Positions 624-31,132 of a DNA stretch of 64,000 nucleotides are shown here, piece by piece. A model generated the notes under the pieces. That model did not search any database and was not told the origin of the DNA. It saw only the letters and a list, made by a program, of their open reading frames with translations. The DNA lies in NCBI GenBank assembly GCA_964594755.1, contig CAZQMO010000001.1:68838-132837 (forward strand). The letters are read 5' to 3'. This DNA comes from an uncultured Candidatus Saccharibacteria bacterium. GTDB taxonomy: Bacteria > Patescibacteriota > Doudnabacteria > UBA920. A program made the translations under genes and the position numbers. The number at the start of each line of letters is the position of its first letter. The stretch's first letter is position 1.

Positions 624-2183
624 GGCGATAAGAACCTTCCTGCAAGTATTCCAGTTGGCTTGGAATTTTGGACAGCAATCTGTCCTTTTACGAATACTGC
701 GTTAATTCCCAACGGGTACTGGTAAGGGTTGTTAATGGTAGCTTTGGAATTCAAGGCAGTTGGATCAAATAGGACTAAATCTGCGTCGTAACCTGTGGCA
801 ATCACCCCTTTATTTTTTAAATTAAGCACTTGGGCGGGTCGACTTGTCATTTTTGCAATTGCTTCTTCCAGGGAAATTGCTTTTGTGTCTAATACTTGTC
901 GCAAAAACTTTGCTGAACTACCAAAGCACCTTGGATGAACCAGCCTGTCACCATGCTCTAAGTTAAAACCACCGCCATTTGTACCTAGAAATGATAGTGC
1001 ATGGTTGCAAAGTACGTTTACCGTTCCTTCATCGAGACATTTATCAAAGACCAATGTTGAACTTCCGCCATGCTCAACCAGGTTTAAAATTGCTTGTTCG
1101 CTCGTTAAACTCATAGTTTTGGCTATTTCACTCAGCTTACGACCGTTTACCTTCATGCCGGCTCCAGACGAGGCCACAGTAATTTCTCCCAGGTTAGTTG
1201 GATGATTTTGTAGAGCGGAAAGAATACGCATTTTTTGATCATTATCATGCAACCTTTGTAGTAAGTGTGTCCGACCTCCTTCTAGAGACCATTTTGGTAA
1301 ATAAGTATACAAGGGTTGCCAAGTTTCAGTGTAAGGGTAACAATCAAAATAAATCTTTGCTCCCCTGTGCCAAGCAGTTTCGATTGAATCTAGTAATTGC
1401 GTAAGGAGGTGCCAGTAAGCTTTATGGCGAATCTTTAAATGGGAAATTTTAATCTTTGCCCCAGTTTGTTCAGCTAATGAAGCCAACTCTTTCGCGCTTT
1501 CGATTACAAGCTCAGATTCATTGCGTAAGGCAATAGCTAATAATTTATCGTGTTTGGCGCAGAGCTTTGCTAAAGCAACTAATTCTACATCAGTGACATT
1601 TATTTCATGTGAGTATTGTAAGCCTACCGACACTCCAAAGGCACCTTCATTAAAACTCTGTTCCAATAAACTTAGCAGACTTTCTAGCTCGGCTTGAGTT
1701 GGTGGATTAGTGCTATCCCCTAATAATCCTCGACGAATGGTTGAATAACCAACTAAGCTAGCGATGTTGGAACCAAATTGCATACTATCTAATTGAGTGT
1801 GATACTCCCCAAAACTACGCCAATTAACATTGAGTCCTGAGGTGGGTTGCCATTTTTGCACAGAGCGCAGGCTATCTTCTGAAATTAATGGAGCTAGGCT
1901 TGCCCCAGAGTTCCCTACTAATAGAGTTGTAAAACCCTGAACTAATACGCTGTCTAAGTTAGGATTAGAAAATAATTGCCAATAAGAGTCGCTGTGGTTT
2001 TGGGTATCTATAAATCCAGGGGCTAAAACCTGGCCAGCTGCATTAATGGTCTGTTTAGCTCCACTCGAGATGTTTTTTTGAACAGCGACAATCTTTTCAC
2101 CTTCAATAGCCACATCTGCTGTGAAAGTTTTTTCTCCAGTACCATCAGCGATTAAAGAATTTTTAATCAGTAATTGATACATT
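620..2183 (-). CDS. Amidohydrolase-superfamily protein (N-acyl-D-amino-acid deacylase-like); likely start at the internal Met MYQLLIKNSLIADG
   Basis: 550-aa ORF whose conserved N-terminus (LIKNxLIADGTG, APGFIDxxxH, GxTTxxxGN) matches the D-aminoacylase family. Its ATG overlaps the mraY stop (TAATG). The HxH motif reads QNH and the GNCG Cys reads GNSG (see findings). Confidence 0.7.
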
Positions 2184-3222
2184 AGCGGTTCAAAAAGAAA
2201 ATGATGATTGACATGATTCCTGAGATGGCAGATAAGATCCAGAATCGCATGGTAATTTTTGCCTCTGGCCAACCACTGGCTTCTAAGTGGTGATGGATAG
2301 GCGCGGATAAAAAGAATTTTCGTTTAAACACATGTCGCCAAAAGATTTGAATAAAATAACTTAAAGCTTCAATTACAAAAATTAATCCAATTAATGGTAA
2401 TAAGTATACGCTGTTAGTTAGGAACGCTACTATCGCCAGTAAGACTCCTAAACCCATTGATCCCGTATCTCCCATAAAGAACCTGGCCGGATACACATTG
2501 AACCATAGGAAGGCTAGTAAGGCTCCAGAGACGACACCCAGCATTACTGCTAAATCTTCACGGCCCTGCATAAATGCGATTACCATGTAACACAAGAACG
2601 CTAAGAGTAAAACCCCACCAGCTAAACCGTCTAGGCCATCGGTTTGATTGACTGCAAAACTCGTTCCTACTGCAACAAGCAAGAAAAATGGAATGAACCA
2701 CCACCCTAGAGTAATGTCACCATAGAAAGGAATCTGAACAAAATCAAAACCCAATTTAAAATAGAACCACCAGGCTCCGATCATGGCTACGGCTGTATAG
2801 AGTAAAACTTTAAATCGGAATCTAAACCCTCTACCTTTGTGTCCAAGTCGGCGAATATCCAAATAATCGTCCATTAAGCCAACAGTTGCAGCCCCAACTA
2901 AAGCTCCTAATGGGAGTAAAGTTTCTTTTCGCGTTAAGAAATTAAAAATATGAAACTGCTCCAGTCCCAAGAGTCGATCCAGTGACCAAAAAACTACAGC
3001 TAATACTACAGTTGTACCCCAGACAATGACTCCTCCCATAGTTGGAGTACCAGCTTTGGCATGGTGCATATTGGTGTAGAGTGGAGTAGTACCATCATTA
3101 CGGATTTGTTTGCCAAGTCGGTATTTGTAAAGAAACTTTGTAACTAGTGGTGTAATTGCTATGGCAAACAGAAAACTTACCATAGTTAAGCTAAAAATTT
3201 TGATGAGTGATTCAGTTATCAT
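2182..3222 (-). CDS. mraY: Phospho-N-acetylmuramoyl-pentapeptide transferase MraY
   Basis: Polytopic membrane protein with MraY motifs NQTDGLDGLA, MGDTGS and PIHHHLE. Confidence 0.93.
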   Translation of the reverse strand: MITESLIKIFSLTMVSFLFAIAITPLVTKFLYKYRLGKQIRNDGTTPLYTNMHHAKAGTPTMGGVIVWGTTVVLAVVFWSLDRLLGLEQFHIFNFLTRKETLLPLGALVGAATVGLMDDYLDIRRLGHKGRGFRFRFKVLLYTAVAMIGAWWFYFKLGFDFVQIPFYGDITLGWWFIPFFLLVAVGTSFAVNQTDGLDGLAGGVLLLAFLCYMVIAFMQGREDLAVMLGVVSGALLAFLWFNVYPARFFMGDTGSMGLGVLLAIVAFLTNSVYLLPLIGLIFVIEALSYFIQIFWRHVFKRKFFLSAPIHHHLEASGWPEAKITMRFWILSAISGIMSIIIFFLNR

Positions 3223-3276
3223 TGCTATTATTATACCATATTTAAAGCGACCCTGAGAGGTCGCTTTGTGTATGTC

Positions 3277-4185
3277 TTAACGGTTCAGAAACTGCTTTCG
3301 TAACTCTAGGGTGTCACCTTCTCGGTCTGGGCTACCAATAACCACAAGTAGTTTTCTGCCACGTTCTGTGTCTAAAAAGTTAATCATCGCACCTAGTGCT
3401 AAATTGGTATACCCAGTTTTTACTGCTCGCAGATCTGGATATTGATTGGCTAGTCTGTTAGTCGCTGAAATAGCGTATTGATTTCCTAATTCACTGACAA
3501 ATCTATATTCAGTAGCTTTTTCTGAATCAGTAAACATACCTCGTTCGTCTAACTTATGTACTAAAATAGAAAGGTCTCTAGCTGAAGAATAATTCACTAC
3601 GCTATCAAAGCCCATGGGATTACTAAATCGAGAATTCTTCATACCAAGTTCTATCGCCTCTTGGTTCATAAGTTCACCAAATGGTAATTCCACTTTTTTT
3701 GCCACGAACCCTCCTAGCACACTAGCAGCATCGTTAGCCGAGCCAATTAGCACAGCACTAACTAGATCTTTTACCCTGATTTTATCACCGGGTTGTAATC
3801 CTAGAACCGGACTCACATTCACAATGTCCCCTGCTTCAACGGTTACCACTTCCGCTGATTGAGAGTGCTCGAGCGCGGTCCATACCGTCATCAACTTGGT
3901 TAGGCTGGCGACAGGTAAGGAATTATCAATCTGCTTCCCCGCAATGATCTGATTTTGCTCATAGTCCAGAACCAGGTAACTAGCTGCTTTAATTCCAGTA
4001 GTATTCTCATTAGACAGCTCATAACTAACTAAGTTGTCTAATTCTGCTTGCTCTCTATCGGTTGCACCTAAAATTTTAATCTGGTTTGTTGGAGCAAAGG
4101 CAGGATCGCTTAACAAAACACTGCCAATCATAGGCAGGAGCAATCCTGCTATGACTGCACTTGATCGGCTGAAATGTTTGTTCAT
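3277..4185 (-). CDS. dacA: D-alanyl-D-alanine carboxypeptidase (S11, PBP5/6-like), secreted
   Basis: N-terminal signal/TM segment plus the SxxK (SLTKLMT), SxN (SAND) and KTG (KTGYT) motifs. Confidence 0.85.
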   Translation of the reverse strand: MNKHFSRSSAVIAGLLLPMIGSVLLSDPAFAPTNQIKILGATDREQAELDNLVSYELSNENTTGIKAASYLVLDYEQNQIIAGKQIDNSLPVASLTKLMTVWTALEHSQSAEVVTVEAGDIVNVSPVLGLQPGDKIRVKDLVSAVLIGSANDAASVLGGFVAKKVELPFGELMNQEAIELGMKNSRFSNPMGFDSVVNYSSARDLSILVHKLDERGMFTDSEKATEYRFVSELGNQYAISATNRLANQYPDLRAVKTGYTNLALGAMINFLDTERGRKLLVVIGSPDREGDTLELRKQFLNR

Positions 4186-4236
4186 AGATATATTTTAAAG
4201 GTATCCTGGTAATCAAGCAATACAAGCGGTCTGCGT

Positions 4237-4265
4237 TGACACTCTGATATCCCTACGATAGTATT
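4237..4265 (+). promoter_or_regulatory. sigma-70 promoter for trxA (TTGACA -17- TAGTAT)
   Basis: ttgaca at 4237-4242, a 17-nt spacer, then tagtat, about 25 nt upstream of the trxA ATG. Confidence 0.55.
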
Positions 4266-4289
4266 AATAAGTAATTAATAAACAATATA

Positions 4290-4610
4290 ATGAGTGAAGT
4301 AAAGATTACCAAAGATACTTTTGAAGAAAAGGTACTCAAATCAAATATTCCCGTATTGGTCGATTTTTGGGCTGAATGGTGCGGTCCTTGTAAGGTCATT
4401 GGCCCGATTCTTAGTGAATTAGCCACAGAAAATGATGGTAAGATTACAGTTGCTAAAATCAATGTAGATGAGGAGCCAGAATTGACTCAGCAGTACGGTA
4501 TCTTGAGTATACCAACCATGAAATTTTTCAAAAATGGTCAGATTGTAGGTGAAATTGTAGGAGCAGCTCCTAAGTCAGCCATAGAAACTGAAATAGCTAA
4601 ACACATCTAA
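4290..4610 (+). CDS. trxA: Thioredoxin
   Basis: 106 aa with the WCGPC active site and a thioredoxin fold. Confidence 0.93.
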   Translation: MSEVKITKDTFEEKVLKSNIPVLVDFWAEWCGPCKVIGPILSELATENDGKITVAKINVDEEPELTQQYGILSIPTMKFFKNGQIVGEIVGAAPKSAIETEIAKHI

Positions 4611-4616
4611 ATTAAG

Positions 4617-4646
4617 ACACCCTCATGATAGAGGGTGTTTTTTTAG
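4617..4646 (+). terminator. Rho-independent terminator after trxA (also terminates the convergent - strand operon)
   Basis: Hairpin acaccctc-atgatag-gagggtgt followed by TTTTTTT. Confidence 0.8.
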
Positions 4647-6415
4647 ATTTGATAGGTTTGCCCTGGCTCCAAAGAGTCTGTAGATTTAGATTCAGAAGTT
4701 TTCTTTGACGAATGCGATGTCTCGTCAGCAGCTTTCCTTTCTGGGGGGTTTGGGCTGAAGACATTTTCAATAGCACTTGTTAAAGTCTCTGCCAAGGCAG
4801 TGTTTTTCTTTTCTTGAATCTTTTGCGCAGACTGCCAAACTTGATTACTTTTAGCTTGGTTTTTACTTGGCTTAGCTACTGATTTTTGCTTGGTTGGGTT
4901 TTTGTGTGCTGTTTTGTCTTTAGGGTTGGAGTCTACGGTGGTTCGCTTGGCCCGTTCTAACAACTCGGACGAAATTTGTATAGCCGGAATATCTGTTTGT
5001 ACAGACTTAGTTTTGGAACTGTCTTTTACTAGTGGCGTAGACGCTGTAACCTTTTCTGTAGCTTCGGCTGCCTCTGATTGAGACTGTTCATTACTATGTG
5101 ATTCTGCAGTCGCGCCATGAAAATCAGTTCCCATCCAGCGCTGGATTTTATCTTCTACTTGCTCCCGAGGCTTAGCATAGCGTTCCCTTGATACTTTAAT
5201 AACTTTATCAGCGTCTCCGACACGCCAATCCTCATTTACTGGCATAGTCACAGCAGTAAACGGATCACTGGCAATACCATTAATCATCAGTTTTAGAATT
5301 ATATGGTATTTAGGAAGGTTTACGATGTCTGTTGGAGTGAAAATTGGATCGAATTCGGTTTCTAAATATTCCGCATCTGCTGCACCAACTCTAAAGACAA
5401 CCATGGTGCCCACATTACCAAATACAGCATCACGGACCTTTGGATTATTATCTGGGGTTAATTGCCCGATATATTGATGTCCTACAGTTAAATTTAATCG
5501 GTACTTCCGTGCTTCCGAAAGAATGGTTGCGAAACTGTCAGTTACAAAATTTTGGAACTCATCTACATATAGGTAAAAGTCTTTTCGTTCATTTTCTGGA
5601 ATATCTACACGAGAGAGAGCAGCTAATTGTAGTTTGGTGACTATCATAGCACCAAGTAATGCTGAGTTATCTTCTCCTACTTTACCCTTTGATAAATCAA
5701 GCAATAAGATCTTATTGTTATCCATAATGTCACGCAAATCTATAGTTGATTTTGGTTGGCCTACAATATTTCGGATCACAGCTGATGATAAAAATTGCCC
5801 GACTTTGTTTTGAATAGGAGCCACTGCTTCAGTTCGGTATTTTTCGGCGTAATTGGCAAATTCTTCAACCCAGAAAGCTTTTACCATTGGGTCCTTAATA
5901 TTATCAACAATTTTCTTGCGGTATTTTTTATCAACGTACATTCTGACAATACCAAGCATAGTGTTGCCTGGACTATCCAACAGCGCCAGAATCGTGTTGT
6001 TAAGGATATACTCCATACGACTCGACCACATACTAGCCCAAATTTTTGTAAACACACCCATTAATCCAGAAGCAACCAAATGTTTATAACGGCTCTCTAC
6101 AGATTCTAAGATATTAAATGCTATCGGATGATCTAGATCTGATGGATCAAAATATACCACATCATTTACCCGGCTTGGGGGAATAAAATCCAAAATTTTA
6201 CGAGTGGAGTCACCATGAGGGTCAATAAAACAGACACCATTACCATTTCGGATATCTTGAATAACCATGTTTTCCATCATGGTAGTTTTCCCCATACCCG
6301 TCTTACCAATCACATACATATGACGGCGACGGTCATCAGGTTTGATCCCAAAAGGAACTTGTTGGTTCCGAAAATTGGTTTTAGCAAAAAAATTGATTGT
6401 TTCTTTTTCGGTCAT
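4643..6415 (-). CDS. Type IV secretion/conjugation-family P-loop ATPase (VirB4/VirD4-TraG-like) with a long low-complexity K/S/T/Q-rich C-terminal tail
   Basis: Walker A RRRHMYVIGKTGMGKT near the N-terminus and Walker B YLYVDEFQNF. The overall pattern matches the TraD/TraG/VirB4 family. There are no TM segments, and the last ~150 aa are disordered and Lys-rich. The start overlaps the upstream ORF stop (ATGA). Confidence 0.7.
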   Translation of the reverse strand: MTEKETINFFAKTNFRNQQVPFGIKPDDRRRHMYVIGKTGMGKTTMMENMVIQDIRNGNGVCFIDPHGDSTRKILDFIPPSRVNDVVYFDPSDLDHPIAFNILESVESRYKHLVASGLMGVFTKIWASMWSSRMEYILNNTILALLDSPGNTMLGIVRMYVDKKYRKKIVDNIKDPMVKAFWVEEFANYAEKYRTEAVAPIQNKVGQFLSSAVIRNIVGQPKSTIDLRDIMDNNKILLLDLSKGKVGEDNSALLGAMIVTKLQLAALSRVDIPENERKDFYLYVDEFQNFVTDSFATILSEARKYRLNLTVGHQYIGQLTPDNNPKVRDAVFGNVGTMVVFRVGAADAEYLETEFDPIFTPTDIVNLPKYHIILKLMINGIASDPFTAVTMPVNEDWRVGDADKVIKVSRERYAKPREQVEDKIQRWMGTDFHGATAESHSNEQSQSEAAEATEKVTASTPLVKDSSKTKSVQTDIPAIQISSELLERAKRTTVDSNPKDKTAHKNPTKQKSVAKPSKNQAKSNQVWQSAQKIQEKKNTALAETLTSAIENVFSPNPPERKAADETSHSSKKTSESKSTDSLEPGQTYQI

Positions 6416-7596
6416 TCAATAGGGAGATTAGCTGGAGGTGAAATCTTCTTGGAGTCCAATGCTTCAACTGGTTGACTAATGCCGGAAATAGTAATTGGGA
6501 AATGTAATATGGTAGCAATTTCCTCGGTGTTAAGGACATAAGTCTTTTCTCCGATCCAATTACTGCGATTCTTATAACCTTTAAATAAGGCAGCTTTACG
6601 TTTTTTTACCCACCAATCTATGTAGGCTGATTCCAAAGTTTTTGAAATTCGATAGTCTTTTTTTGGCCCGAACGCAGGTTTAAAACCATTACTAGATGGT
6701 GCACTAAAAATCTTAAAAGGACTCAAGATTAATTTTTTGTGATCAGAGTTAAACTTCTCTGCAGTTCCGATATGAAGTAGGCGAATTTTTGCTTTATAAC
6801 CCGGACGTGATAATTTGGTCTTGATAGCAGTTATATCAGCTTTTTCAACTTCGTCTAACTGAATCATATCACGTTCACCTTTGATTTTTTCTACTTCTTC
6901 ATCAGCATCATCATGCCAAGAATCGTCCATTACAGGTTCCAGAATATACTGCAAACCATAAAACTCTTGATCACTTATCTTGGTGAAGGTTTCTAATAAC
7001 GGTGACAGTGGGTCTACAACAATATTGCTTAGTTCAGGTGCGGTTAAGCCTTCAAATTCTCGATAGGTTCGAATTGGGAATGACTGATTTTTAACCAATA
7101 CAAATTCGGCGCCGAATAAATCATAACGGGAATCATCAGGAGAATAATCAAAGTTTTCCAAATAGTCTTGGACTTCTGTGATTTCTAAGCTTGGATAATT
7201 AGCATAAAGTGCAGCCTCAACTAAATCGCGTTGTTTAGTGGGGACTCTGACTAGGTAAGAAATTTTTCCGCCCAAACTAATTATTTCAAATGAGATACGA
7301 AATACTAATTTGCCTTCAAGGTATTTTTCCTGGAAAGTAAAATTATCGAATAATTGGTGTAACTGAATAAAGACCTGTTCTGCCTGATAAAAAGTGGTTG
7401 GATTTTCTTTCGGTGGCTTAAGTTCAAGTAACGTGTAGTCAATACTACCTAAATACTGACCTTGTATCTCTTCTAAGTAAAGTCGATATAGGATCCAAAT
7501 TGCGAGCAAAACAAAAACGATCCACCCACCGTGACTTATTATAAACCAAGCTGCGCTTAAACTTTGTGATATGTCCGGGAATAGACCGTTTTCCAT
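6412..7596 (-). CDS. Membrane-anchored protein (single N-terminal TM helix), translationally coupled to the T4SS-like ATPase; possibly the N-domain partner of a split VirB4-like protein
   Basis: 394 aa with an N-terminal hydrophobic helix (WFIISHGGWIVFVLLAIWILYRL) and an acidic central region. It has a 4-nt overlap with the downstream ATPase. Confidence 0.55.
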   Translation of the reverse strand: MENGLFPDISQSLSAAWFIISHGGWIVFVLLAIWILYRLYLEEIQGQYLGSIDYTLLELKPPKENPTTFYQAEQVFIQLHQLFDNFTFQEKYLEGKLVFRISFEIISLGGKISYLVRVPTKQRDLVEAALYANYPSLEITEVQDYLENFDYSPDDSRYDLFGAEFVLVKNQSFPIRTYREFEGLTAPELSNIVVDPLSPLLETFTKISDQEFYGLQYILEPVMDDSWHDDADEEVEKIKGERDMIQLDEVEKADITAIKTKLSRPGYKAKIRLLHIGTAEKFNSDHKKLILSPFKIFSAPSSNGFKPAFGPKKDYRISKTLESAYIDWWVKKRKAALFKGYKNRSNWIGEKTYVLNTEEIATILHFPITISGISQPVEALDSKKISPPANLPIE

Positions 7597-7630
7597 ATTA
7601 GAGCTAGTGTTTGTTTAATACTTTTTTGAT

Positions 7631-8719
7631 TTACTTTACAATGTCGTAAAGATTTTTTCCGACCTTACGGAACAATTTCTTATTTGATAATCCAACTAAG
7701 ACGGTATTCTTCTTTACCAGGCGCTTATCGAGTACCCGTTTAATGATTTCGTCCCTAGATAATGGCTGACCTTCTTCTTTGATTACTTCAGAGATAATAT
7801 CGGACACCACGCCTGGTTTATAACCCCATTCAGTCAGAGCATAAATACCACGGCCGACGAGTACAAAACGCTTATCTTTGATTAACTTGTTATGAACTGT
7901 TTCTTTATAAGCTTTACGGCTATCAATGTTGTTTTGATTAATCAGGTCAGTAATGACTGAGTAATGCTCTGGTTTGCCATGATGTTTCATCACCAAGTAG
8001 GCTTTATCCCCCACATCCTTAGGTTTGATCTCATTCCAGTGAGATAGACCATATTCTCCAAAGGGATTTTTCCGAATCGTTTCAGCAGTGTGTAAATAAT
8101 TCAATACCACTTTTGGAGTAAGCCGGGTTTCATTTTGCTTATAGAAATCAGATTGCTGGAAAGCTTCCAAAAATTCGTCTGCAGAAATTGGTTTCCCGTG
8201 ATTATCGAGTAGATCTTTGGTCGCTGCAATAAATTCATGCAGGAAATCGCGTTCGAAACCAATCTTGGCCCATGATTGAAGAATGTGCTCATCGGAGCCA
8301 TGCTCTTCTAGTTCAGAAATTAACTTGAGGAGGAATTTGAGAGCTTGGATGTCAGCAGGATCAGTGTAACCTAAGTAATTAGTCAAAGCTTCCTCAGACA
8401 TAATCCCACCATGTTCGGAAATAGTATTAATCAGTAAATCGCGAGCTGAGATAAAGTCTTGCAACTCAACAACGCCACGTTTGAGATTTTTTAAGAGTTC
8501 TTTTTCGATTTGTCGAACACGCTCACGGGTCAAACCTTGCTCTTCACCAACAGCTTTTAAGGTAGATACTTCATGCTCACCTAAGCCATAGCGTTTAGAA
8601 AGAATAACTTTTTCACGTTCTTTCAACGGTTCTAGAATTCGATCAATAATAATATTGAGTTCGAACTGTTGCAACGACTCTTTCTGATGTGAATCAATAA
8701 TTGTGTCCAAAATTCCCAT
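7631..8719 (-). CDS. DNA-binding protein with a sigma-70 region-4-like HTH (N-terminal) and a HARE-HTH-like C-terminal motif
   Basis: LSKRYGL...GLTRERVRQIEKELLKNL is a typical sigma-70 r4 HTH. The C-terminal VLVGRGIYALTEWGY matches the GRGxYxLxEW signature of HARE-HTH/Mrr_N-like domains. It is the first gene of an operon with the two downstream genes. Confidence 0.5.
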   Translation of the reverse strand: MGILDTIIDSHQKESLQQFELNIIIDRILEPLKEREKVILSKRYGLGEHEVSTLKAVGEEQGLTRERVRQIEKELLKNLKRGVVELQDFISARDLLINTISEHGGIMSEEALTNYLGYTDPADIQALKFLLKLISELEEHGSDEHILQSWAKIGFERDFLHEFIAATKDLLDNHGKPISADEFLEAFQQSDFYKQNETRLTPKVVLNYLHTAETIRKNPFGEYGLSHWNEIKPKDVGDKAYLVMKHHGKPEHYSVITDLINQNNIDSRKAYKETVHNKLIKDKRFVLVGRGIYALTEWGYKPGVVSDIISEVIKEEGQPLSRDEIIKRVLDKRLVKKNTVLVGLSNKKLFRKVGKNLYDIVK

Positions 8720-8737
8720 AAACGTATAATTTCCCCA

Positions 8738-8766
8738 ATTATAACATATATCTTTTTATTGGTCAA
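8738..8766 (-). promoter_or_regulatory. Consensus sigma-70 promoter (TTGACC -17- TATAAT) driving the HTH / membrane / ATPase operon
   Basis: On the - strand: ttgacc, spacer aataaaaagatatatgt (17 nt), then tataat, about 12 nt upstream of the ATG at 8719. Confidence 0.65.
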
Positions 8767-8790
8767 CCTATAGTAATCAGTATAATAAAG

Positions 8791-8820
8791 AAAACCCCTC
8801 ATAAGTAAGGGGTTTTCTAG
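8791..8820 (-). terminator. Rho-independent terminator after secF
   Basis: On the - strand: aaacccct-tacttatg-aggggttt followed by a T-rich run. Confidence 0.7.
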
Positions 8821-9708
8821 TTATTTTTTCATTTTACGTAGTTGCCAGTAATTTAATATTGGGCTCGCAACGAAGATTGATGAGTAGGTTCCTGCGATAA
8901 TTCCGATAAACAGTGCTAGAACAAAGTACCTAATAGTCTCTCCTCCGAAGAGTAACAGAGCCAGTAAGACCAACAATACGGTTAAACTGGTGTTCAATGA
9001 TCTAACTAAGGTCTGAGATACACTGTGATTGATCACAAATTCCATAGTCTGTCCGGCATAGATGCGTAGGTTCTCTCGAATACGGTCAAACACGATGATT
9101 GTATCATGCACAGAAAAGCCTAGAACAGTCAGCATGGCCGTAACGAACATGGTATCTATTTCAACTCCGCCAAATTTACCTAAAATCGCAAAGACACCTA
9201 GAACAATAATTAAGTCATGAAGCAAAGCAATTACTGCAGCGATACCGAATTGCCAACTTGAAACTGGTCTTGTTACCCGGCGGAACGCATAGGCAATATA
9301 AAGAATTATTCCTACAGAGATTAACAATAATTGATAGAGAGCTTGTCTTGTGAGCTGTTCTCCAACAACTGGTCCAATCGATTCAAAACGTCGTTCTTCA
9401 AAATTACCTAGATTGGTCCGCAAAGCTTCTAAGTACTTGTCATTTTCAGATTTGTCGGTTACTTCACTGCGGATAATAATGCCGTTGTCATCAGTAGATT
9501 GAACTTGGGCATTGCTCAGACCATTTTGAGATAAAGTGTCGCGAACCTGACTTGGGCTGACTGGTTGTTCAAAGGAGATTTCGGTTACGGTACCACCTTT
9601 AAAATCGATTCCTAATCGCAGACCAAAGATTGCTAGAGATAAGATTCCTAAACCAGTGAGAACTATCGAGAGTACAAAAAAATGTTTGTAATATTTTAAG
9701 AGTTTCAT
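8821..9708 (-). CDS. secF: Protein-export membrane protein SecF
   Basis: 295 aa, six TM segments, N-terminal LGIDFKGGT motif. Confidence 0.92.
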   Translation of the reverse strand: MKLLKYYKHFFVLSIVLTGLGILSLAIFGLRLGIDFKGGTVTEISFEQPVSPSQVRDTLSQNGLSNAQVQSTDDNGIIIRSEVTDKSENDKYLEALRTNLGNFEERRFESIGPVVGEQLTRQALYQLLLISVGIILYIAYAFRRVTRPVSSWQFGIAAVIALLHDLIIVLGVFAILGKFGGVEIDTMFVTAMLTVLGFSVHDTIIVFDRIRENLRIYAGQTMEFVINHSVSQTLVRSLNTSLTVLLVLLALLLFGGETIRYFVLALFIGIIAGTYSSIFVASPILNYWQLRKMKK

Positions 9709-9709
9709 A

Positions 9710-11209
9710 TTAGTTCCTCCCCCCTTCTGTTGACTTTTTGGGCAGTTTCACTCCAAATAACCACGGAATACGGGCGATACGGTCATTCATTAAGACAGCC
9801 AAGAATGTTCGAGTTGCTGTAATTGCACTAAACATTGAAATCAATACACCAATCGACAAAGCTATAGCGAAGCCTTTTACAGAGGAAGTTCCAAAGGTGT
9901 ACAAGATCAACGTGGTAATCAAAGTGGAAACATTTGAATCACGAATAGACAGCCAAGCGCGATCGAACCCATCCTTGATAGCCTTTTGTAAGTCTTTACC
10001 AGCACGGATTTCTTCACGGACTCTTTCAAAGATTAAAATATTGGCATCAACTGCCATACCAATCGAAAGAATAAAACCAGCAATACCTGCTAAGGTTAAG
10101 GTTACTGGGGAAACCGCGTTTAGGAAAATTAGGGCGATGTAGCTTATTAACGCAATTATCCCAAACCAACCACTGACAGTTACGCCGAGAAGGAAGAATA
10201 CACCTACCAGAATCACGGCAGTGATAGAAATTCCGATTTTAAAGATGGCAACTGATACCAAAGTGTAGACGAGTAAAGCAAGAACAGCTAGGAAACCTGG
10301 CCAGCGGTAGTACCAAAGCATAAATAGAGCAACTAAGATCAAGCCAATCAAACCAGCTAATAATGATTTCTGAATTGATTCTTCACCTAAACTAGCCCCA
10401 ACATTTTGTTGTGAAATCAAATTAATAGGGACTGGTAAGGCACCAGAGTTCAGACGAGTTGCTAATAGTTTTGCTTCTTCTGGGGTAAAGCCACCAGTGA
10501 TGTAAGCTTCGCCATTGGTAATGGTGTCATTAACCCGAGGAGCCTGAATGATTTGACCATCCAAAACAATGGCTAAAGGTTTGCCGATATTTTCTTCTGT
10601 GATTTTGGCGAACAGTTCCTTACCCTCATCATTGAAATTTAAACGAACCACAACTTGAGTATTAATCCCCTGCCCTTGCTGAACGTCTGCAGTAGCTCGC
10701 TCGAGCTGCTTTCCTGACAATCCAGTAGGTTCCCAACCAGTCAAAGGATCAATCGTGATTTGACCATCAGGACCAACGATTGGAGTAGGTCGTGCTTCTG
10801 GATCATCTTGAGTTCGAAACTCAAGTAAAGCAGTTTCACCAATTTGCTTGATAGCATCGTTGATATCAGAGATACCAGGTAATTCAACCACAATTTGGTC
10901 GCTACCTTGAATCTGAACAAGAGGTTCAGCTACGCCAAAGCTGTTCACGCGACGTTCAATAGTATCGCGAACACTAGCAAGGGCGTCGCCGCGATCTGAT
11001 TCTGAAATATCTTTATAGTCAGCTTGGTAAACAAGTCGTGCTCCACCTTGTAAATCTAAACCTAACTTGGGTGGAAATTCTTTCTGGTAATCTATGCCAA
11101 TTTTGGTGAGATTGATCTTTTGCCCTTGCGGATGAACTATCCAAGCAGCCGCAGCTCCAATCAAAATCACAAACAAAAAAACCGTAAAACGTTTTATGAA
11201 TGATTTCAT
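9710..11209 (-). CDS. secD: Protein-export membrane protein SecD
   Basis: 499 aa with LGLDLQGGARLVYQ and a large periplasmic domain plus a C-terminal TM bundle. Adjacent to secF. Confidence 0.92.
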   Translation of the reverse strand: MKSFIKRFTVFLFVILIGAAAAWIVHPQGQKINLTKIGIDYQKEFPPKLGLDLQGGARLVYQADYKDISESDRGDALASVRDTIERRVNSFGVAEPLVQIQGSDQIVVELPGISDINDAIKQIGETALLEFRTQDDPEARPTPIVGPDGQITIDPLTGWEPTGLSGKQLERATADVQQGQGINTQVVVRLNFNDEGKELFAKITEENIGKPLAIVLDGQIIQAPRVNDTITNGEAYITGGFTPEEAKLLATRLNSGALPVPINLISQQNVGASLGEESIQKSLLAGLIGLILVALFMLWYYRWPGFLAVLALLVYTLVSVAIFKIGISITAVILVGVFFLLGVTVSGWFGIIALISYIALIFLNAVSPVTLTLAGIAGFILSIGMAVDANILIFERVREEIRAGKDLQKAIKDGFDRAWLSIRDSNVSTLITTLILYTFGTSSVKGFAIALSIGVLISMFSAITATRTFLAVLMNDRIARIPWLFGVKLPKKSTEGGRN

Positions 11210-11278: not shown

Positions 11279-13816
11279 CTAGCGAAAATACCGCATAATT
11301 AAAGCTAAGTCACGCTTCTGCCAGGCGAGATTTATCCGAATCTTTTCAGTGGTTTGAGCAATGGCTTGCTTTGCATACGACAGCTTTTTCCCCTTTTGAA
11401 ACTTAAGGAATCCTGCTAGCTCTTGAGTAGTGTTAAAACTTTGAGCTCCGGAGAGCAGGTAGCCTGCCATTTTGGTACCCATAAACTGTTGTTGCAATTT
11501 TGGCCAGTGTTTTAGAATAGTTCGCCAGACTTGCGACTTAATCGCGGGATTTTGTAATGCAGCCGAGATAGCAAAAGGCTGGTCTTGGTTTCGGACTTTA
11601 GTACTAAATAATAATTTTAGCAACTCGGTTTGAGTTCGCTTGGTAGCTCCCGAAATTAATGCAAAGAGAATTTGCTGCTTTTGGATGGCCAGATCGGATT
11701 GGTCATACAAAGCCAACAATTGTTGGTACTGCTGCTTACTACCAAACTTTGCGATAGTCGCGAATACCGCGCTCCGTAGATTGACATCAACGGATTTAAT
11801 ATTTCTGCCAGTTTTAAAATATTTTATGGCCGCCGCAATAGCTAGTTTCTCGCCTCCTAACCCTGCTTCATGAAAAGCCAAACCTCGCAGTAAAGCATTA
11901 TTATTGGGTTCATTCTTTTTAACCTTAAAGCCAATTTGAGGACGGGCGATTAATTGGCTAAACAGTTTGGTTTGAAACTGTTCTAATTTTTGTTGTGCTT
12001 TGGTACCAAACAACATTCGATGCAGCTGGTTTAGTTGTTTGGCAATCTCAGACCAAATTACATAACTAAGCTCATTGTCTGTAAATCGTAAGGTTTCTAA
12101 ATAGACATCAGTTGGTATCAAACCAGATTTGGCTAATAAAAAGGAGTCTCTGATTAACGCCAACCGGTCTTGTGTATTGAGAGTTTTATCCTCAAACTTT
12201 GGTAGCAGTCTTGCGAGCAAACCCATATCATATCGTATGACTGTAAGACTGGTGTCATTATGATCCAGGTTAATAAATTCAAAGGTGTTTGGTAAAGGAA
12301 GCTGAGTTGATTTGGTGCTGAATAAAAATGGCGCACTAATTTCTTTTTCGGAAGTGTGCAAACTTAGTGGAATTGGCCAGGTCAGCTTATTAGCTTTTGG
12401 CAGTTGCTTAAACTCTTGCTGGTCTAGCTGTAACAAGTCGCCTTCAGTCGAAATTGAAACAACTGGAAACCCAGGTTTTTCGGTCCAAGCTTTCATTATC
12501 GCTCTAATTGGTTGGCCGGAAACTTTTTCAAAACTTTCCCATAAATGAATTGAAGAAGTATTTTTGTAGGAATGTTTTTTTAGATACTGAGATAAACCCT
12601 TTTGAAAATGCTCTGCCCCAATATAATTTTCTAGCATCCGCAGAACACTAGCCCCTTTGGCGTAACTAATTGCGTCAAATATTTCGGAGATTTCATCGGG
12701 GTGCTTTACCGGAACTTCTATTGGGTGCGTGGCATGCAAGCTATCTTGTTGCAATGCAAAAGCTTGTTCGTCTAAGGCGAACTTAGTCCAGTAATTCCAT
12801 TCTGGATAGATTGCATCAACTACATGGTAAGCCATGTAAGTTGCAAAGCTTTCATTAAGCCAGAGATGAGTCCACCACTCCATAGTAACCAAATTACCAA
12901 ACCATTGATGAACTAATTCATGAGCAATAACCTCTGCAACCCGCTGCTTCTGGCTAAAAGGCGAGTTGTCTTCATCTACTAACAATAGAGTCTCACGAAA
13001 AGTGATTGCTCCCCAATTCTCCATGGCTCCAGCAGAAAAGTCTGGGATTGCCAATAAATCCAAAATTGGTAACGGGTATTTTATGCCAAAATAGTTTTCT
13101 AAATAATCAAGCGCCTTTTTGGAAAATTCCAATGCAAACTTCCCCTGAGCTTTTTTCCCTGGAGTTGTGTGAACTCGAATTTTGACTTTACTCTTGCTTA
13201 TTCCTTGTAAGTGCTCGAGCTCCCCTACAATCAAGGCTAACAAGTAAGAAGACATATTTGGCGTCGCCTTAAATTTGATAACTTGGTAGCCTGGTAGATG
13301 TGGTGAAATCTTGTCTGGGATAGTGTTGGAAATTGCGGTCAGATGCTTTGGGATAACTACTTCGAGTACAAACTTGGATTTGTGAGAGGGTTCATCAAAG
13401 CAAGGAATCATACGGCGGGCATCAGTAGCTTCAAACTGACTCACAGCCAGATACTTATCTTGGCCTTTGTGATGGTATTGGCTGCGATAAAGGCCTCGCA
13501 GTTGATCATTAATTGTTCCTGTGAATTGTAAAGTTAATTTAGTCTTACCTTTAACAGGTTTAGGGAGTATTAGAGTAATCGTTTCACCTTTAGACTGATA
13601 AGTTAACTTTGGCTCGAATTTTGACCTACCAACAGTGAGTGCTACGTGAGTAACTTTTAAGTCAACTGAGTGCAATACTAATTGTTTAACTGGCTTATCG
13701 ATTTCTAAACTTATGATTTCTGAGCCGACAAAATTAAAATCCGCCAGATTTGTCTGGATTTTAATATGGTATTGGATAGGTTTTATATTTGCCGAAAGTC
13801 GATGTTTGGTTTTCAT
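11279..13816 (-). CDS. pepN: Aminopeptidase N (M1 family zinc metallopeptidase)
   Basis: 845 aa with the GAMEN motif (FSAGAMEN) and the HEXXH-18-E zinc site (HELVHQWFGNLVTMEWWTHLWLNESFA). Confidence 0.92.
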   Translation of the reverse strand: MKTKHRLSANIKPIQYHIKIQTNLADFNFVGSEIISLEIDKPVKQLVLHSVDLKVTHVALTVGRSKFEPKLTYQSKGETITLILPKPVKGKTKLTLQFTGTINDQLRGLYRSQYHHKGQDKYLAVSQFEATDARRMIPCFDEPSHKSKFVLEVVIPKHLTAISNTIPDKISPHLPGYQVIKFKATPNMSSYLLALIVGELEHLQGISKSKVKIRVHTTPGKKAQGKFALEFSKKALDYLENYFGIKYPLPILDLLAIPDFSAGAMENWGAITFRETLLLVDEDNSPFSQKQRVAEVIAHELVHQWFGNLVTMEWWTHLWLNESFATYMAYHVVDAIYPEWNYWTKFALDEQAFALQQDSLHATHPIEVPVKHPDEISEIFDAISYAKGASVLRMLENYIGAEHFQKGLSQYLKKHSYKNTSSIHLWESFEKVSGQPIRAIMKAWTEKPGFPVVSISTEGDLLQLDQQEFKQLPKANKLTWPIPLSLHTSEKEISAPFLFSTKSTQLPLPNTFEFINLDHNDTSLTVIRYDMGLLARLLPKFEDKTLNTQDRLALIRDSFLLAKSGLIPTDVYLETLRFTDNELSYVIWSEIAKQLNQLHRMLFGTKAQQKLEQFQTKLFSQLIARPQIGFKVKKNEPNNNALLRGLAFHEAGLGGEKLAIAAAIKYFKTGRNIKSVDVNLRSAVFATIAKFGSKQQYQQLLALYDQSDLAIQKQQILFALISGATKRTQTELLKLLFSTKVRNQDQPFAISAALQNPAIKSQVWRTILKHWPKLQQQFMGTKMAGYLLSGAQSFNTTQELAGFLKFQKGKKLSYAKQAIAQTTEKIRINLAWQKRDLALIMRYFR

Positions 13817-13824
13817 GGTTAACT

Positions 13825-16554
13825 CTAGTTAGCCAGATTGTTTTGATGCTCTTCACTATTTACAAGCCCGCACTTTTTATACTTCTTACCGCTACCACAG
13901 TAACATGGGTCGTTTCTGCCTAACCCTTGGGCGCGCGGATCAGCTGGTTCAGCTTGGCTAACTTGGCCTTGCTGAGGTTGACTTCCACCAGACAGATTAA
14001 TGGTAGCGTGGTGGTGCTGTGCTCCACCTTCATCAGTATGAGTTTCAACTCCAATTCTTAATACCGCAGACAGCACCTGCTGATCAATTTCAGATAATAA
14101 TCGTTGGAATAAACTGTGGCCTTCTTTTTTATACTCAACCAATGGGTCGCGCTGTCCATAACCACGAAGACGGACGCTATCACGCAAATGATCCATGGTA
14201 TCTAAGTGTTCCATCCAGAGTCGGTCAATACTCTGCAAAATCACCGTACGCAATATACTGTTATATAATTCTTCGCCTATTTCTTGGGCTTTGGCCTTAA
14301 AACTGTCATTGGCTAATTTGTGCAGTTCATCAGCAATCACAAATTCACGATCAGCTGCATTTTGACTCGCTTCTAAAATTACAGTTTTCTTGTTTTGATC
14401 TAATTGAGGAATAAAACTACTTACTTCAGCAAAAATCTGTTCCACCGCTTCATCATGACTTAGGGTACCGAAGTGACTTGTGATAATTTCATCAATTTTT
14501 CGATTGAATAACTCAGTAATTTCTGTCTGAACAGAACCATCTAATTCTCCACCTGATAAATACTTGCGGCGGCGTTTATAAATCTTTTTACGTTGCTGGT
14601 TAAGCACATCATCAAACTCCAACACATTTTTACGAGTGTCAAAGTTCAAACCTTCAATTTTCTTTTGCGCTGATTCAATGCTTCGGGAAACCATCTTGGC
14701 TTCTATAGGCTGATCATCGGGAATCTTAAGAGTTTCCATCATGCTTTGCATACGGGCACCACCAAATAGACGCATTAAATCGTCTTCCATGGAAACATAG
14801 AATTGACTCGACCCAGGATCACCCTGACGGCCGCTACGACCGCGCAATTGGTTATCAATCCGGCGAGATTCATGACGTTCAGTTCCAATGACGGCTAAAC
14901 CACCGGCCTGTTTAACTTTCTGAGCTTCTGCTGGATCAACCGGGTTACCGCCAAGCAAAATGTCAACACCACGACCGGCAATATTAGTAGCTACAGTAAT
15001 CGCTCCGCTACGGCCTGCTTGAGCAATGATTTGCGCTTCCCGTTCGTGATTTTTTGCATTGAGCATTTCGAACTGCAAACCTTCTTTTTTTAAAGCATCA
15101 GCAAGTTGTTCATTTTTAGCAATGCTGACTGTACCAATCAACACTGGCTGACCATTCTTGTGTCGTTCCTTTACATCCCGGGCGATGGCTGTGAATTTAC
15201 CAGCTTCATTCTTGAATACTAAATCAGAATGGTCTAGGCGAACCATTGGTTGATTGGTCGGAATTTGCGTTACTTCGAGCTGATAGATTTTGAAAAATTC
15301 TTCTTCCTCGGTCTTAGCTGTACCAGTCATACCGGACAATCTTGAGTACAGACGGAACAAATTCTGGAAGGTAATGGTCGCTAAGGTTTTACTTTCTTGT
15401 TGAATCTTTACGTTTTCTTTGGCCTCAATTGCCTGGTGAAGTCCCTGACTGTAACGGCGACCAAACATTAAACGGCCAGTAAATTCATCAACAATTACTA
15501 CCTCCCCATCACGGATGACATAATCACGATCTTTTTTGTATAAAGTTTTGGCACGAAGAGCTTGTTCAATATGGTGCAAAGTGGTTACACCGGCGCTAGT
15601 GTCGTAAATATTTGGAATATTCAAAATTCCTTCGATCTTAGTAATACCATCGTCAGTAAGGCTGGCGGCTTTGTGTTTTTCGTCAACAGTATAGTCTTCA
15701 GTCTCTTGCAATCGATCAACTAACTTTGAAAACTGATAATACTTATCAGTTGGTTCTGAATCTGGTTGCGAAATAATTAATGGTGTGCGGGCTTCATCAA
15801 TTAAAATACTGTCGACTTCGTCAACGATTGCGAAAAACAAATCACGCTGACGGAGTTGTTTAACATCCTGGACCATATTATCGCGCAAGTAATCAAAGCC
15901 GTACTCATTATTGGTTCCGTAAGTAATGTCGGCAGCGTAAGCTTCTTGGCGGCTAACTGGTCGCATGTGCTTTACATCAAGCACTAAACCTTGAGTACCA
16001 GATTCTATGGCATCAATTTCTTCTTGTTCTGGTTGGAAGCTTGGGTCAAATTTAAAAGAAGCTTCGTGCTGAATGCTTGCAACAGACAAACCTAAGTATT
16101 CGTACAAGCGACCCATGTCACTAGCTTGCCAACGCGCCAAGTAATCATTAACTGTTACTAAATGAGCGCCGCGGCCGGCTAACGCAAATAACACCAACGG
16201 TAAAGTTGCAGTTAGTGTTTTACCTTCACCGGTTTTCATTTCAGCGATACGGCCTTCAGACAGCACTAAACCACCCATTAACTGCACATCAAAATGGAAT
16301 TGAGAACGAGAACGTTTAGAAGCTTCACGAGTTAAAGCAAATACGCGAGTGCGTATTTCCATTAGTTTCTTAAAGACTTGTTCTTCTTCTGTTAGTTTAG
16401 CTAGTTCGGTTTTAAAGCTTTGGATTTCTGCCTTAATTTGCTCTTCGGTGAGCTCAGCTACTTCTTCAGCCAAAGCATTGATCTTGTCCAATTCGCCTTG
16501 ATATTTGCCTAATCCAGGGCCGCTAGACTTAAAAATTCTGTTGAAAATTGACAT
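13825..16554 (-). CDS. secA: Preprotein translocase ATPase SecA
   Basis: 909 aa with DEAD-like motor motifs and a C-terminal zinc-binding tail CYCGSGKKYKKCG. Confidence 0.96.
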   Translation of the reverse strand: MSIFNRIFKSSGPGLGKYQGELDKINALAEEVAELTEEQIKAEIQSFKTELAKLTEEEQVFKKLMEIRTRVFALTREASKRSRSQFHFDVQLMGGLVLSEGRIAEMKTGEGKTLTATLPLVLFALAGRGAHLVTVNDYLARWQASDMGRLYEYLGLSVASIQHEASFKFDPSFQPEQEEIDAIESGTQGLVLDVKHMRPVSRQEAYAADITYGTNNEYGFDYLRDNMVQDVKQLRQRDLFFAIVDEVDSILIDEARTPLIISQPDSEPTDKYYQFSKLVDRLQETEDYTVDEKHKAASLTDDGITKIEGILNIPNIYDTSAGVTTLHHIEQALRAKTLYKKDRDYVIRDGEVVIVDEFTGRLMFGRRYSQGLHQAIEAKENVKIQQESKTLATITFQNLFRLYSRLSGMTGTAKTEEEEFFKIYQLEVTQIPTNQPMVRLDHSDLVFKNEAGKFTAIARDVKERHKNGQPVLIGTVSIAKNEQLADALKKEGLQFEMLNAKNHEREAQIIAQAGRSGAITVATNIAGRGVDILLGGNPVDPAEAQKVKQAGGLAVIGTERHESRRIDNQLRGRSGRQGDPGSSQFYVSMEDDLMRLFGGARMQSMMETLKIPDDQPIEAKMVSRSIESAQKKIEGLNFDTRKNVLEFDDVLNQQRKKIYKRRRKYLSGGELDGSVQTEITELFNRKIDEIITSHFGTLSHDEAVEQIFAEVSSFIPQLDQNKKTVILEASQNAADREFVIADELHKLANDSFKAKAQEIGEELYNSILRTVILQSIDRLWMEHLDTMDHLRDSVRLRGYGQRDPLVEYKKEGHSLFQRLLSEIDQQVLSAVLRIGVETHTDEGGAQHHHATINLSGGSQPQQGQVSQAEPADPRAQGLGRNDPCYCGSGKKYKKCGLVNSEEHQNNLAN

Positions 16555-29770: not shown

Positions 29771-29833
29771 AAAGCTTACTGCTCCATATTATATCAAACC
29801 CCGCTAATCCGCCGACTGGCAGAGCGGGGTTGA

Positions 29834-30964: not shown

Positions 30965-30969
30965 CGACA

Positions 30970-31131: not shown

Positions 31132-31132
31132 G

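Follow-up and report, generated by a model that had tools for sequence, protein, structure and literature searches.

A predicted split, membrane-anchored ATPase of the VirD4/TrwB type in the core chromosome of Patescibacteria, and its tentative reading as a domesticated coupling ATPase

What is a gene for a conjugation-type ATPase doing among the housekeeping genes of a Patescibacterium, and what does its product move? The question is raised by a three-gene unit, here called P1, P2 and P3, which lies on the minus strand throughout in the 64,000-nt stretch of contig CAZQMO010000001.1 that we analysed (the window). An earlier, sequence-only reading of the same DNA had described a promoter, three co-directional and tightly packed open reading frames (ORFs), an ATGA overlap between the second and the third of them and a set of protein motifs, all of which we recovered at the same coordinates (Table 1). 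The homologues carry the names Candidatus Doudnabacteria or Patescibacteria group, and the whole window belongs to the core chromosome of a Patescibacterium that resembles Doudnabacteria. We are highly confident about identity and architecture: P2 and P3 together make up a split, membrane-anchored motor ATPase of the conjugation (VirD4/TrwB-like) type, which is found Patescibacteria-wide. As to function, we tentatively favour, by analogy and at rather less than an even chance, a domesticated coupling ATPase of a chromosomal, relaxase-less type IV secretion system (T4SS) that is encoded elsewhere; identity and mechanism taken together as one explanation stand, in our estimation, only just short of even.

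The placement of P3 comes first. The sequence-only reading had put it in the VirB4/VirD4-TraG clade of ATPases, which is borne out and can now be narrowed, by Pfam, phmmer and hhalign alike, to VirD4/TrwB-like. P3 exceeds the respective cut-offs of the Pfam models TrwB_AAD_bind (E 5e-12), DUF87 and TraG-D_C (against PF10412, 45.9 bits with a cut-off of 20.5) and stays under that of AAA_10 (E 0.024); the NCBIfam models that match it are TraD- and VirD4-like, and its closest PDB sequences by phmmer are TrwB and DotL. Its Walker A context, RRRHMYVIGKTGMGKT, begins at residue 29, and residue 26 aligns to residue 49 of a TrwB construct from which the transmembrane (TM) part is deleted, that is, to about residue 118 of full-length TrwB. 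When a profile of 33 P3 orthologues was compared by hhalign with the R388 reference sequences (taken from NC_028464), 257 columns aligned to TrwB 118-392 with 91% probability, whereas the alignment with TrwK/VirB4 proteins was confined to the P-loop; likewise, TrwB alone detects all 82 of the 82 P3-like ORFs in the loci that we collected, and TrwK/VirB4 detects none. Where TrwB has its all-alpha domain, P3 has a predicted helical stretch (residues 102-232), which aligns weakly to TrwB 190-318. The core is 66-86% identical in the 33 orthologues of the alignment, which come from different classes; its invariant columns number in the hundreds and take in the Walker A/B and RK...Q positions.

Membership of the FtsK-HerA superfamily, membrane anchoring and very high conservation might also suggest a substitute for, or a paralogue of, FtsK/SpoIIIE acting in chromosome segregation at division, and the sequence-only reading had named a housekeeping translocase of this kind as what could overturn its placement. 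Pfam, however, finds no FtsK_SpoIIIE, alpha or gamma domain on P3 at E <= 1, and the transposon-sequencing (Tn-seq) study of Southlakia epibionticum (Wang et al., 2023, PMC10633639) lists a canonical and essential FtsK, SEML1_0096, beside a non-essential gene of the P2-P3 type. TM7x also has ftsK. With a canonical ftsK in both organisms we dropped the idea of an FtsK replacement, which we regard as very improbable.

The second step concerns the relation of P3 to P2. A P3 orthologue follows P2 directly in 76 of the 79 P2-bearing loci, at junctions that range from short overlaps to gaps of ~240 nt, most junctions being gaps of 1-12 nt. In the window the two ORFs lie in different reading frames and overlap by 4 nt, which, considering that fused versions exist elsewhere, could be mistaken for a frameshifted pseudogene of one fused gene, a possibility that the sequence-only reading itself had raised. 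We exclude this on the grounds that the split is conserved, as are the two halves themselves: the two-gene state recurs in those 76 loci across many classes and with varied junctions, each half is full-length and strongly conserved with a start codon of its own, and the split falls exactly at a domain boundary. We give the pseudogene next to no credence. To find single-chain homologues, we used a chimeric query consisting of P2 and the first 110 residues of P3, and it returned ~30 true single-chain proteins of 793-881 aa in which DUF8128, the domain of P2 (see below), is joined to TrwB_AAD_bind/DUF87/TraG-D_C. NCBI names them as Gracilibacteria, Peregrinibacteria and Dojkabacteria; the fused form probably occurs in Saccharimonadia as well. 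One of them, P0393 from a complete 862-kb Dojkabacteria genome, aligns with its residues 43-352 to P2 56-393 (E 9e-32) and with its residues 357-777 to P3 9-432 (50% identity, E 2e-153), and its junction, ...PQNLPINEGRLFGLTDYRGQ..., maps exactly onto the ATGA of the window, with ~4 residues between the NLPI motif and the P3-like start. Because the junction of the fused protein maps there, the alignments indicate that the ATGA marks a gene fission at a domain boundary and that P2 and P3 are the halves of one protein. The full protein has three parts: a single N-terminal TM helix, the DUF8128 domain and the TrwB/VirD4-type P-loop ATPase, behind which comes a low-complexity tail. An apparent P2-P3 fusion at another locus (L036) was rejected, its ORF reading across 100 N at a scaffold gap. 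One Patescibacteria contig (L092) carries two fused paralogues of DUF8128 and type IV coupling protein (T4CP) in tandem, at 656-3154 and 3158-5803, of 832 and 881 aa.

P2 has the single N-terminal TM helix that had been read from the sequence: it contains one hydrophobic segment (Table 1), its AlphaFold2 (AF2) model has a helix over residues 7-51, and G23, G24 and W25 within the TM helix form a conserved GGW motif. By hydropathy P3 has no hydrophobic or TM segment. In the fused homologues a strongly basic cluster stands directly behind the TM helix, and therefore the predicted topology is N-out/C-in, with the DUF8128 and ATPase parts in the cytoplasm. Many fused homologues (P0370, P0372, P0381 and P0384, at ~residues 221-261) also have a hydrophobic insertion in DUF8128, for example KIWPKIVFFPVYFIFWLQGL, possibly a further TM helix or else a loop that dips into the membrane; P2 of the window lacks it.

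In our local Pfam, NCBIfam and PADLOC libraries P2 has no match. The precomputed Pfam annotation places PF26449, that is DUF8128, on the P2 of the window and on nearly all of its homologues, and a literature search for the name DUF8128 found no paper. The family comprises 3,193 clusters at 50% identity and occurs in at least 583 species-representative genomes, nearly all labelled Patescibacteria. The AF2 model of P2, with a predicted local distance difference test (pLDDT) score of 83.8 and a predicted template modelling score of 0.80, begins with a long helix and contains alpha/beta domains, and its C-terminus, which is disordered, bears the conserved EELATLYHFP...PPxNLP motifs. A Foldseek search with this model gave 12 hits at E <= 1e-3, all 12 of them TrwK chains (7o42, 7o43, 8rtb, 8rtd). 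We assign the match to the N-terminal domain of VirB4 because P2 lacks a P-loop and the Foldseek matches include no P-loop ATPase other than TrwK, the residue ranges of the hits not being visible; on this model, then, the fold of P2 would be VirB4 N-terminal-domain-like. At the level of sequence, hhalign of two P2 profiles (A2 and A4) with TrwK, TrsE, TrsD and the VirB4 of Niallia stayed below 1% probability, none of 51 scanned P2 family members matches any T4SS model of Pfam, and a P2 profile search against PDB sequences returned nothing, so that the relationship of P2 to VirB4 appears to be one of fold only. The sequence-only reading had proposed a VirB4-like protein split into a membrane domain and an ATPase domain; this is largely right, in that the split and the VirB4 likeness of the membrane half hold and single-chain versions exist elsewhere, but the ATPase half is VirD4-like.

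The tail of P3, ~160 aa and probably disordered, had been called lysine-rich, and it is indeed enriched in lysine (12.5% vs 7% in the core), but it is a nearly neutral polyampholyte with a net charge of +2. Across orthologues it ends in the consensus h-x-P-G-[EQ]-x-x-x-[FLI], with P584 and G585 nearly invariant, and the rest of the tail is variable, except that W527 is invariant. Recruitment of partners by C-terminal tails is known from TraD-TraM and from the DotL adaptors, and by analogy with TraD and DotL the tail of P3 probably serves the same purpose. Tails of 21 of 52 P3 orthologues (among loci L024-L080) contain a 4-Cys motif, such as CDNCGK...PIYCRDC in L036, and are more basic than the tail of the window, which has no cysteine.

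Where might such a protein come from? P2 has a single plasmid match, to part of a 'DUF87 domain-containing protein' of 867 aa on plasmid NZ_CP137637.1 of Niallia sp. XMNu-256. Residues 55-313 of this protein align to the P2 profile (98.6% probability, E 1e-15) and residues 338-751 to that of P3 (99.7% probability, E 1.5e-26). Its gene heads a Tcp-type Gram-positive conjugation locus (L087, 59899-72487) that also encodes Replic_Relax, TcpC, TcpE, an AAA_10 VirB4 (E 2e-118), a VirB6/TrbL-like protein and a cell-wall hydrolase. Because it heads a locus with Replic_Relax, Tcp genes and a separate VirB4, the Niallia ATPase is, to judge by its gene order, in the position of the coupling protein. A 913-aa ATPase on Bacillus subtilis plasmid NZ_OX419581.1 (L088) has the same layout, with TcpD also present. 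DUF8128-like ATPases in the coupling position are found on 18 Bacillaceae plasmids, all typed 'non-mobilizable' by MOB-suite; the two loci inspected among the 18, L087 and L088, have Replic_Relax, TcpC, TcpE and an AAA_10 or large VirB4-type ATPase, and the 18 plasmids may be unrecognised conjugative plasmids. A literature search found no experimental characterisation of these plasmid ATPases.

The chromosomal family has a quite regular setting. Of the 66 loci that could be tested, from many classes, 58 have secF (with secD) upstream of the module, and in 46 of the 66 a P1 orthologue stands between secF and P2; secD-secF-(P1)-P2-P3 is thus a conserved block. In loci that lack P1, the distance from secF to P2 is often below 125 nt, or the two genes overlap, and a strong promoter is missing. 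Downstream of P3 no gene is universal, the commonest being mnmA (20 loci), dac (16) and trxA (10). Of the fused genes, one (L086) is preceded by a Sigma70_r4 + HARE-HTH gene that ends 2 nt before it, with a convergent secDF 2 kb off, and the tandem pair of L092 has DUF1290-secF-secD, convergent, 2.4 kb downstream; in Gracilibacteria/Peregrinibacteria the order is ileS, a holin-like gene, secG, an SBP gene, rplI, ruvX and then the fusion, and two fused loci stand alone. The P2-P3 family is, split or fused, a vertically inherited chromosomal core feature across Patescibacteria. An unusual module inserted in a housekeeping region, as the sequence-only reading had implied, does not agree with this block or with the GC content of the module (0.37-0.39, similar to the window average of ~0.40).

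The same reading had also thought of a defence role, for which we found no support. A mobile-element remnant or an anti-phage module, for example one of the MADS type with its mad8, might be seen in the matches of P3 to the PADLOC model mad8 (E 3e-14) and to HerA models, in the match of P1 to MzaA, which covers the sigma region 4, and in the relatives on conjugative-type plasmids. Against this stand the uniform composition, the same chromosomal context across classes and an extreme sequence conservation; the window holds no integrase, relaxase, methyltransferase, nuclease, FtsK or T4SS gene, nor did the flanks of the related loci show an integrase, relaxase, FtsK or T4SS gene; IMG/VR viral contigs contain no relatives of P2, and P2 has no PADLOC hit. 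We dropped the defence idea, as the PADLOC hits are to single domains without system context, and consider either variant hardly probable.

A neighbourhood so dominated by sec genes invites another thought, namely that the ATPase belongs to a Sec-associated machine independent of any T4SS, which docks on or close to SecDF/SecYEG and drives the export of particular proteins, their extraction from the membrane or their quality control, such as the dislocation of pilins or adhesins; pilin dislocation has been proposed for VirB4. The frequency of secF directly upstream, the P2 genes that abut or overlap secF where P1 is missing, the convergent secDF within ~2.4 kb of fused genes in L086 and L092, secG three genes off in the Gracilibacteria/Peregrinibacteria contexts and secA 5 kb upstream in the window all speak for it, as do the VirB4 N-terminal-like fold and the conserved GGW in the TM helix. 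Synteny can be historical, however; in the window P1, with its own promoter, and a terminator stand between secF and P2, and neither the S. epibionticum nor the Dojkabacteria locus has a sec neighbour. To our knowledge, a T4CP-type ATPase that acts with Sec would be without precedent. We consider this machine unlikely, if second among the functional readings.

P1, the first gene of the unit, offers a different clue. Both domains that the sequence-only reading had recognised in it, the sigma-70 region 4 helix-turn-helix (HTH) and the HARE-HTH, are significant in Pfam (Table 1; PF05066 at 47.2 bits vs a cut-off of 25.9, with GRGIYALTEW beginning at residue 289); region 4 also matches that of RpoS/RpoD among PDB sequences (E 7e-12), and further winged-helix-like regions are present. 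Region 2 is missing: Pfam matches region 4 only, and all NCBIfam sigma models remain far under their cut-offs and align only to residues 3-90. Lacking region 2, P1 is, as far as its sequence tells, not a sigma factor. It has no acidic tail of the type found in the delta subunit of RNA polymerase, no hydrophobic segment by hydropathy and no similarity to Replic_Relax proteins; we predict a cytoplasmic protein that binds DNA or RNA polymerase. A literature search for HARE-HTH combined with sigma region 4 gave no papers.

The promoter upstream of P1 is the top-scoring site in 3500-10500, and the 5' untranslated region between it and the start codon of P1, an ATG, is no longer than 18 nt. Promoter-like sites are not enriched in that interval (12 observed vs 17.9 +/- 3.8 in shuffles), and it is not enrichment that makes the site credible but its conservation: 31 of 42 related loci have a site scoring at least 10/12 upstream of the P1 orthologue, mostly TTGACA-17-TG-TATAxT, compared with just 4 of 21 loci without P1. 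P1 and P2 are 34 nt apart.

If P1 recognises DNA, P3 could be a relaxase-independent DNA motor that works with it, either a ComFA-like uptake motor behind ComEC or a tether between nucleoid and membrane. The T4CP family does include DNA-dependent ATPases, as established for TrwB; P1, with its region 4 and winged helices, adjoins the module in the 46 loci and again beside fused genes; many orthologue tails are basic, the 4-Cys motif recurs in 21 of 52, and ruvX lies directly upstream in the Gracilibacteria contexts. The naturally competent S. epibionticum, moreover, has ComEC and a ComFC-like protein, ComFA (like SecD) not being annotated, and benzonase was present throughout the Tn-seq passages, which left any dependence on extracellular DNA outside the assay (PMC10633639). 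The phenotypes differ, however, in that the reads of ComEC mutants stay flat and those of SEML1_0293, the gene for the ATPase, fall ~4-fold, and the gene of P1 architecture is essential, the ATPase not (PMC10633639); in addition, the tail of P3 in the window is nearly neutral, and P1 is missing from about one third of the loci. We rank this DNA motor third and regard it as more doubtful still than the association with Sec.

The S. epibionticum data deserve a closer look. SEML1_0294, scored essential, is 349 aa long and combines Sigma70_r4 (27-72) and HARE-HTH (225-283) with three winged-helix domains; directly downstream lies SEML1_0293, of 921 aa with TrwB_AAD_bind at 402-719, non-essential, whose normalized reads fall from 5817 at T0 to 2940 at T1 and 1372 at T2 (Wang et al., 2023, PMC10633639, Tables S1 and S2). 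Both are flagged 'core family' and 'Patescibacteria enriched' in Table S1 of that study and are not discussed in its main text. Gene order and domain architectures match P1 followed by P2-P3, and from length, Pfam offsets and the neighbour gene SEML1_0293 is apparently a fused P2-P3 orthologue. The locus has no secDF nearby and differs from the window in its neighbours, GNAT, Cas9, topA and dprA. The T4SS cluster of S. epibionticum, pilins included, is essential and has no recognisable coupling protein (PMC10633639). The same genome encodes an essential 1,019-aa 'TraM recognition domain' ATPase, SEML1_0142, with an FtsK-like fold and a P-loop from ~residue 380, which is preceded by a small essential hypothetical gene, SEML1_0141 (PMC10633639, Table S1); perhaps SEML1_0142 serves the T4SS as its functional coupling ATPase, or it may belong to another machine.

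The coupling reading that we tentatively prefer starts from the coupling-protein ancestry of the ATPase and from T4SS clusters that have no T4CP. An essential T4SS with pilins beside a non-essential SEML1_0293 is consistent with a classical coupling-protein role, since VirD4 is dispensable for pilus biogenesis. The mechanism that we propose is modelled on VirD4/TrwB and VirB4: P3 would assemble into a hexameric ring on the cytoplasmic side of the membrane, and P2 would hold it there, in the role of the two-TM anchor of coupling proteins or of VirB3 plus the VirB4 N-terminal domain. ATP hydrolysis would drive the hand-over of substrate to a membrane channel, with the tail peptide of P3 recruiting a partner or the substrate itself, and the motor would be needed for the transfer of substrates, perhaps DNA-protein or effector, and not for pilus biogenesis or viability. 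P1 might be a co-inherited DNA-binding partner or else an essential transcription factor that merely shares the operon.

Genome surveys give this scenario a background. Quinonero-Coronel et al. (2025, PMC12102498) examined 3,035 Patescibacteria genomes and counted 5,713 VirD4-like T4CP homologues, spread over 2,918 of them; only 148 of the 5,713 were near virB4, and VirB4 was present in 2,417 genomes. They suggested that the T4CP might have been exapted, and described neither a partner protein nor synteny for it. A prevalence of 96% for T4CP vs 80% for VirB4 is, we infer, what one would expect of two near-universal genes at ~2 vs ~1 copies per genome in metagenome-assembled genomes that are ~80% complete.

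Several observations weigh against the coupling reading. Relaxases are rare, and none is known in most Patescibacteria (PMC12102498). No T4SS gene adjoins the module in the window or in the flanks of ~90 loci, as the sequence-only reading had already noticed for the window; the conserved partners are secDF and P1 instead, and the core of P3 is conserved far above what one would expect of a conjugation-derived accessory protein. The gene of P1 architecture is essential and the adjoining ATPase not (PMC10633639), and therefore P1 should have a role beyond serving this motor. Finally, the AF2 model of P3 from the 33-sequence alignment, with a pLDDT of 42.9, is too poor for a test of the fold. Weighing all this, we still place the coupling ATPase of a T4SS above the Sec-associated machine and the latter above the DNA motor with P1.

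One may go further and suppose that DUF8128 plus T4CP is an ancient third branch of the VirB4/VirD4 family that bridges the two, and that Patescibacteria domesticated it from a monoderm conjugation system into a universal chromosomal machine. Together with the essential sigma-4/HARE-HTH protein and the Sec neighbourhood, this machine would carry DNA or proteins between episymbiont and host, independently of a relaxase. We consider this improbable as a whole.

That orphan T4CP homologues abound in Patescibacteria was known, and so was DUF8128 as a Pfam entry; we found no prior description of the link between DUF8128 and the VirB4 N-terminal fold, of the P2-P3 fission and fusion, of the synteny with P1 and secDF or of the Bacillaceae relatives. 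Much of bacterial diversity falls to Patescibacteria, yet the machines defined in them that are both widespread in the lineage and enriched in it are very few. Earlier literature went no further than a count of 'orphan T4CP homologues' and the suggestion of exaptation (PMC12102498), their partner domain being an unstudied DUF, and the module is now defined by its architecture, a fold link to VirB4, a likely origin from monoderm coupling proteins and the partners P1 and secDF. It is also approachable by experiment, S. epibionticum being transformable and the ATPase mutant viable. A coupling ATPase with a VirB4-like N-terminal domain bears, furthermore, on the origin of VirD4 from VirB4.

Around the unit the window contains genes for the cell envelope (mraY, a D-Ala-D-Ala carboxypeptidase, murB, a Mur ligase, murG, ftsW/rodA), secretion (secA, secD, secF), replication (dnaE, dnaB) and translation-related functions (RF-1, several tRNA synthetases, RNase P RNA), with trxA and pepN among the others. 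At 11279-16554 (minus strand) secA and an M1 aminopeptidase N gene lie upstream of secD, which gives the order secA-pepN-secD-secF-P1-P2-P3. A patatin-like phospholipase gene (19780-20811, minus) is unusually placed within the cluster of murB, Mur ligase, murG and glycosyltransferase genes; the organism is presumably unable to make its own lipids. The RNase P RNA, of bacterial class A (25434-25758, plus, 120 bits), lies just beyond three GT4 glycosyltransferase genes, and four tRNA genes (Trp, Thr, Tyr, Thr) are clustered at 29697-31208 (minus). The listed TTG start of an amidohydrolase ORF (620-2272, minus) overlaps the 3' end of mraY (2182-3222, minus) by 91 nt, and the true start is probably further downstream. 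Two genes of the Na+/H+ exchanger family, one fused to a TrkA_N domain, lie at 49037-50767 and 62352-63851 (both plus).

Table 1. Features of the P1-P2-P3 unit and its flanks; positions are those of the window
Feature	Position	Strand	Basis or remark
P1	7631-8719	-	362-aa ORF
P1 sigma-70 region 4 HTH	8480-8635 (residues 29-80)	-	PF04545, E 2e-9
P1 HARE-HTH	7826-8005 (residues 239-298)	-	PF05066, E 3e-12; contains GRGIYALTEW
P2	6412-7596	-	394-aa ORF; N-terminal half of split ATPase
P2 transmembrane segment	7465-7563 (residues 12-44)	-	hydropathy
P3	4643-6415	-	590-aa ORF; C-terminal half of split ATPase
P3 Walker A, GKTGMGKT	6284-6307 (residues 37-44)	-	invariant in 33 orthologues; aligned to TrwB P-loop
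P3 Walker B region, VDEFQNF	5546-5566 (residues 284-290)	-	aligned to TrwB ...FIDELAS...
P3 low-complexity tail	4646-5125 (residues 431-590)	-	ends in conserved LEPGQTYQI
ATGA, overlap of P2 stop and P3 start	6412-6415	-	junction ...CCT ATT GAATGACC...
Sigma-70-type promoter, TTGACC-17-TATAAT, extended -10 TG	8738-8766	-	score 11/12
Terminator-like hairpin 3' of secF	8789-8818	-	13-pair stem, 5 GC pairs, T-rich tail; sets secDF apart from the P1 unit
Terminator-like hairpin, bidirectional	4614-4641	both	between trxA (+) and P3 (-)
secF	8821-9708	-	ORF call; conserved upstream neighbour
secD	9710-11209	-	ORF call; conserved upstream neighbour

How does the module compare with known systems? With FtsK and SpoIIIE P3 shares its superfamily, that of the hexameric pumping ATPases associated with membranes, but their defining domains (FtsK_SpoIIIE, alpha, gamma) are missing from it and Saccharibacteria have a separate canonical FtsK. 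From MADS and other PADLOC systems the P2-P3 locus differs in having no full set of components. P1 has the winged-helix domain of HARE-HTH proteins such as RpoE, the delta subunit of RNA polymerase, whose acidic tail it lacks.

VirB4, as in TrwK of R388 or in VirB3-VirB4 fusions, resembles P2 plus P3 in its succession of a membrane element, a ~350-residue N-terminal domain and a P-loop C-terminal domain, and in TrsD/TrsE the VirB4 N-terminal domain is likewise a separate gene (PMC12102498), parallel to P2/P3. Unlike these systems, P2 shows no detectable sequence similarity to VirB4 N-terminal domains or to TrsD, P3 has only the P-loop in common with VirB4 and is otherwise VirD4-like, and VirB3, VirB6 and VirB8 are not adjacent to P2-P3.

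The classical coupling proteins TrwB (R388), VirD4, TraD and DotL have a nucleotide-binding domain homologous to that of P3, with Walker A/B and the RK...Q region; to judge by helix prediction and the weak TrwB alignment, P3 may also have a helical insertion at the position of their all-alpha domain. Their two-TM anchor is part of the same polypeptide, whereas P3 has none and is predicted to be anchored in trans by the single TM helix of P2, which adds a cytoplasmic domain of ~330 residues that is missing from classical T4CPs. P3 is, moreover, the product of a chromosomal core gene without relaxase or mating-pair formation (Mpf) genes alongside, in the window as in the flanks of ~90 loci; such a linkage is seen only in the Bacillaceae plasmid relatives. 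The latter differ in being plasmid-borne single chains that lack an N-terminal TM segment and have an acidic tail; behind their genes there always come Replic_Relax and a Tcp-type T4SS that has an AAA_10 VirB4 of its own, and neither a P1-like gene nor secDF is nearby. They nevertheless have the same overall build as P2 plus P3: a DUF8128-like N-terminal domain, a TrwB/DUF87/TraG-D_C ATPase and a long low-complexity tail.

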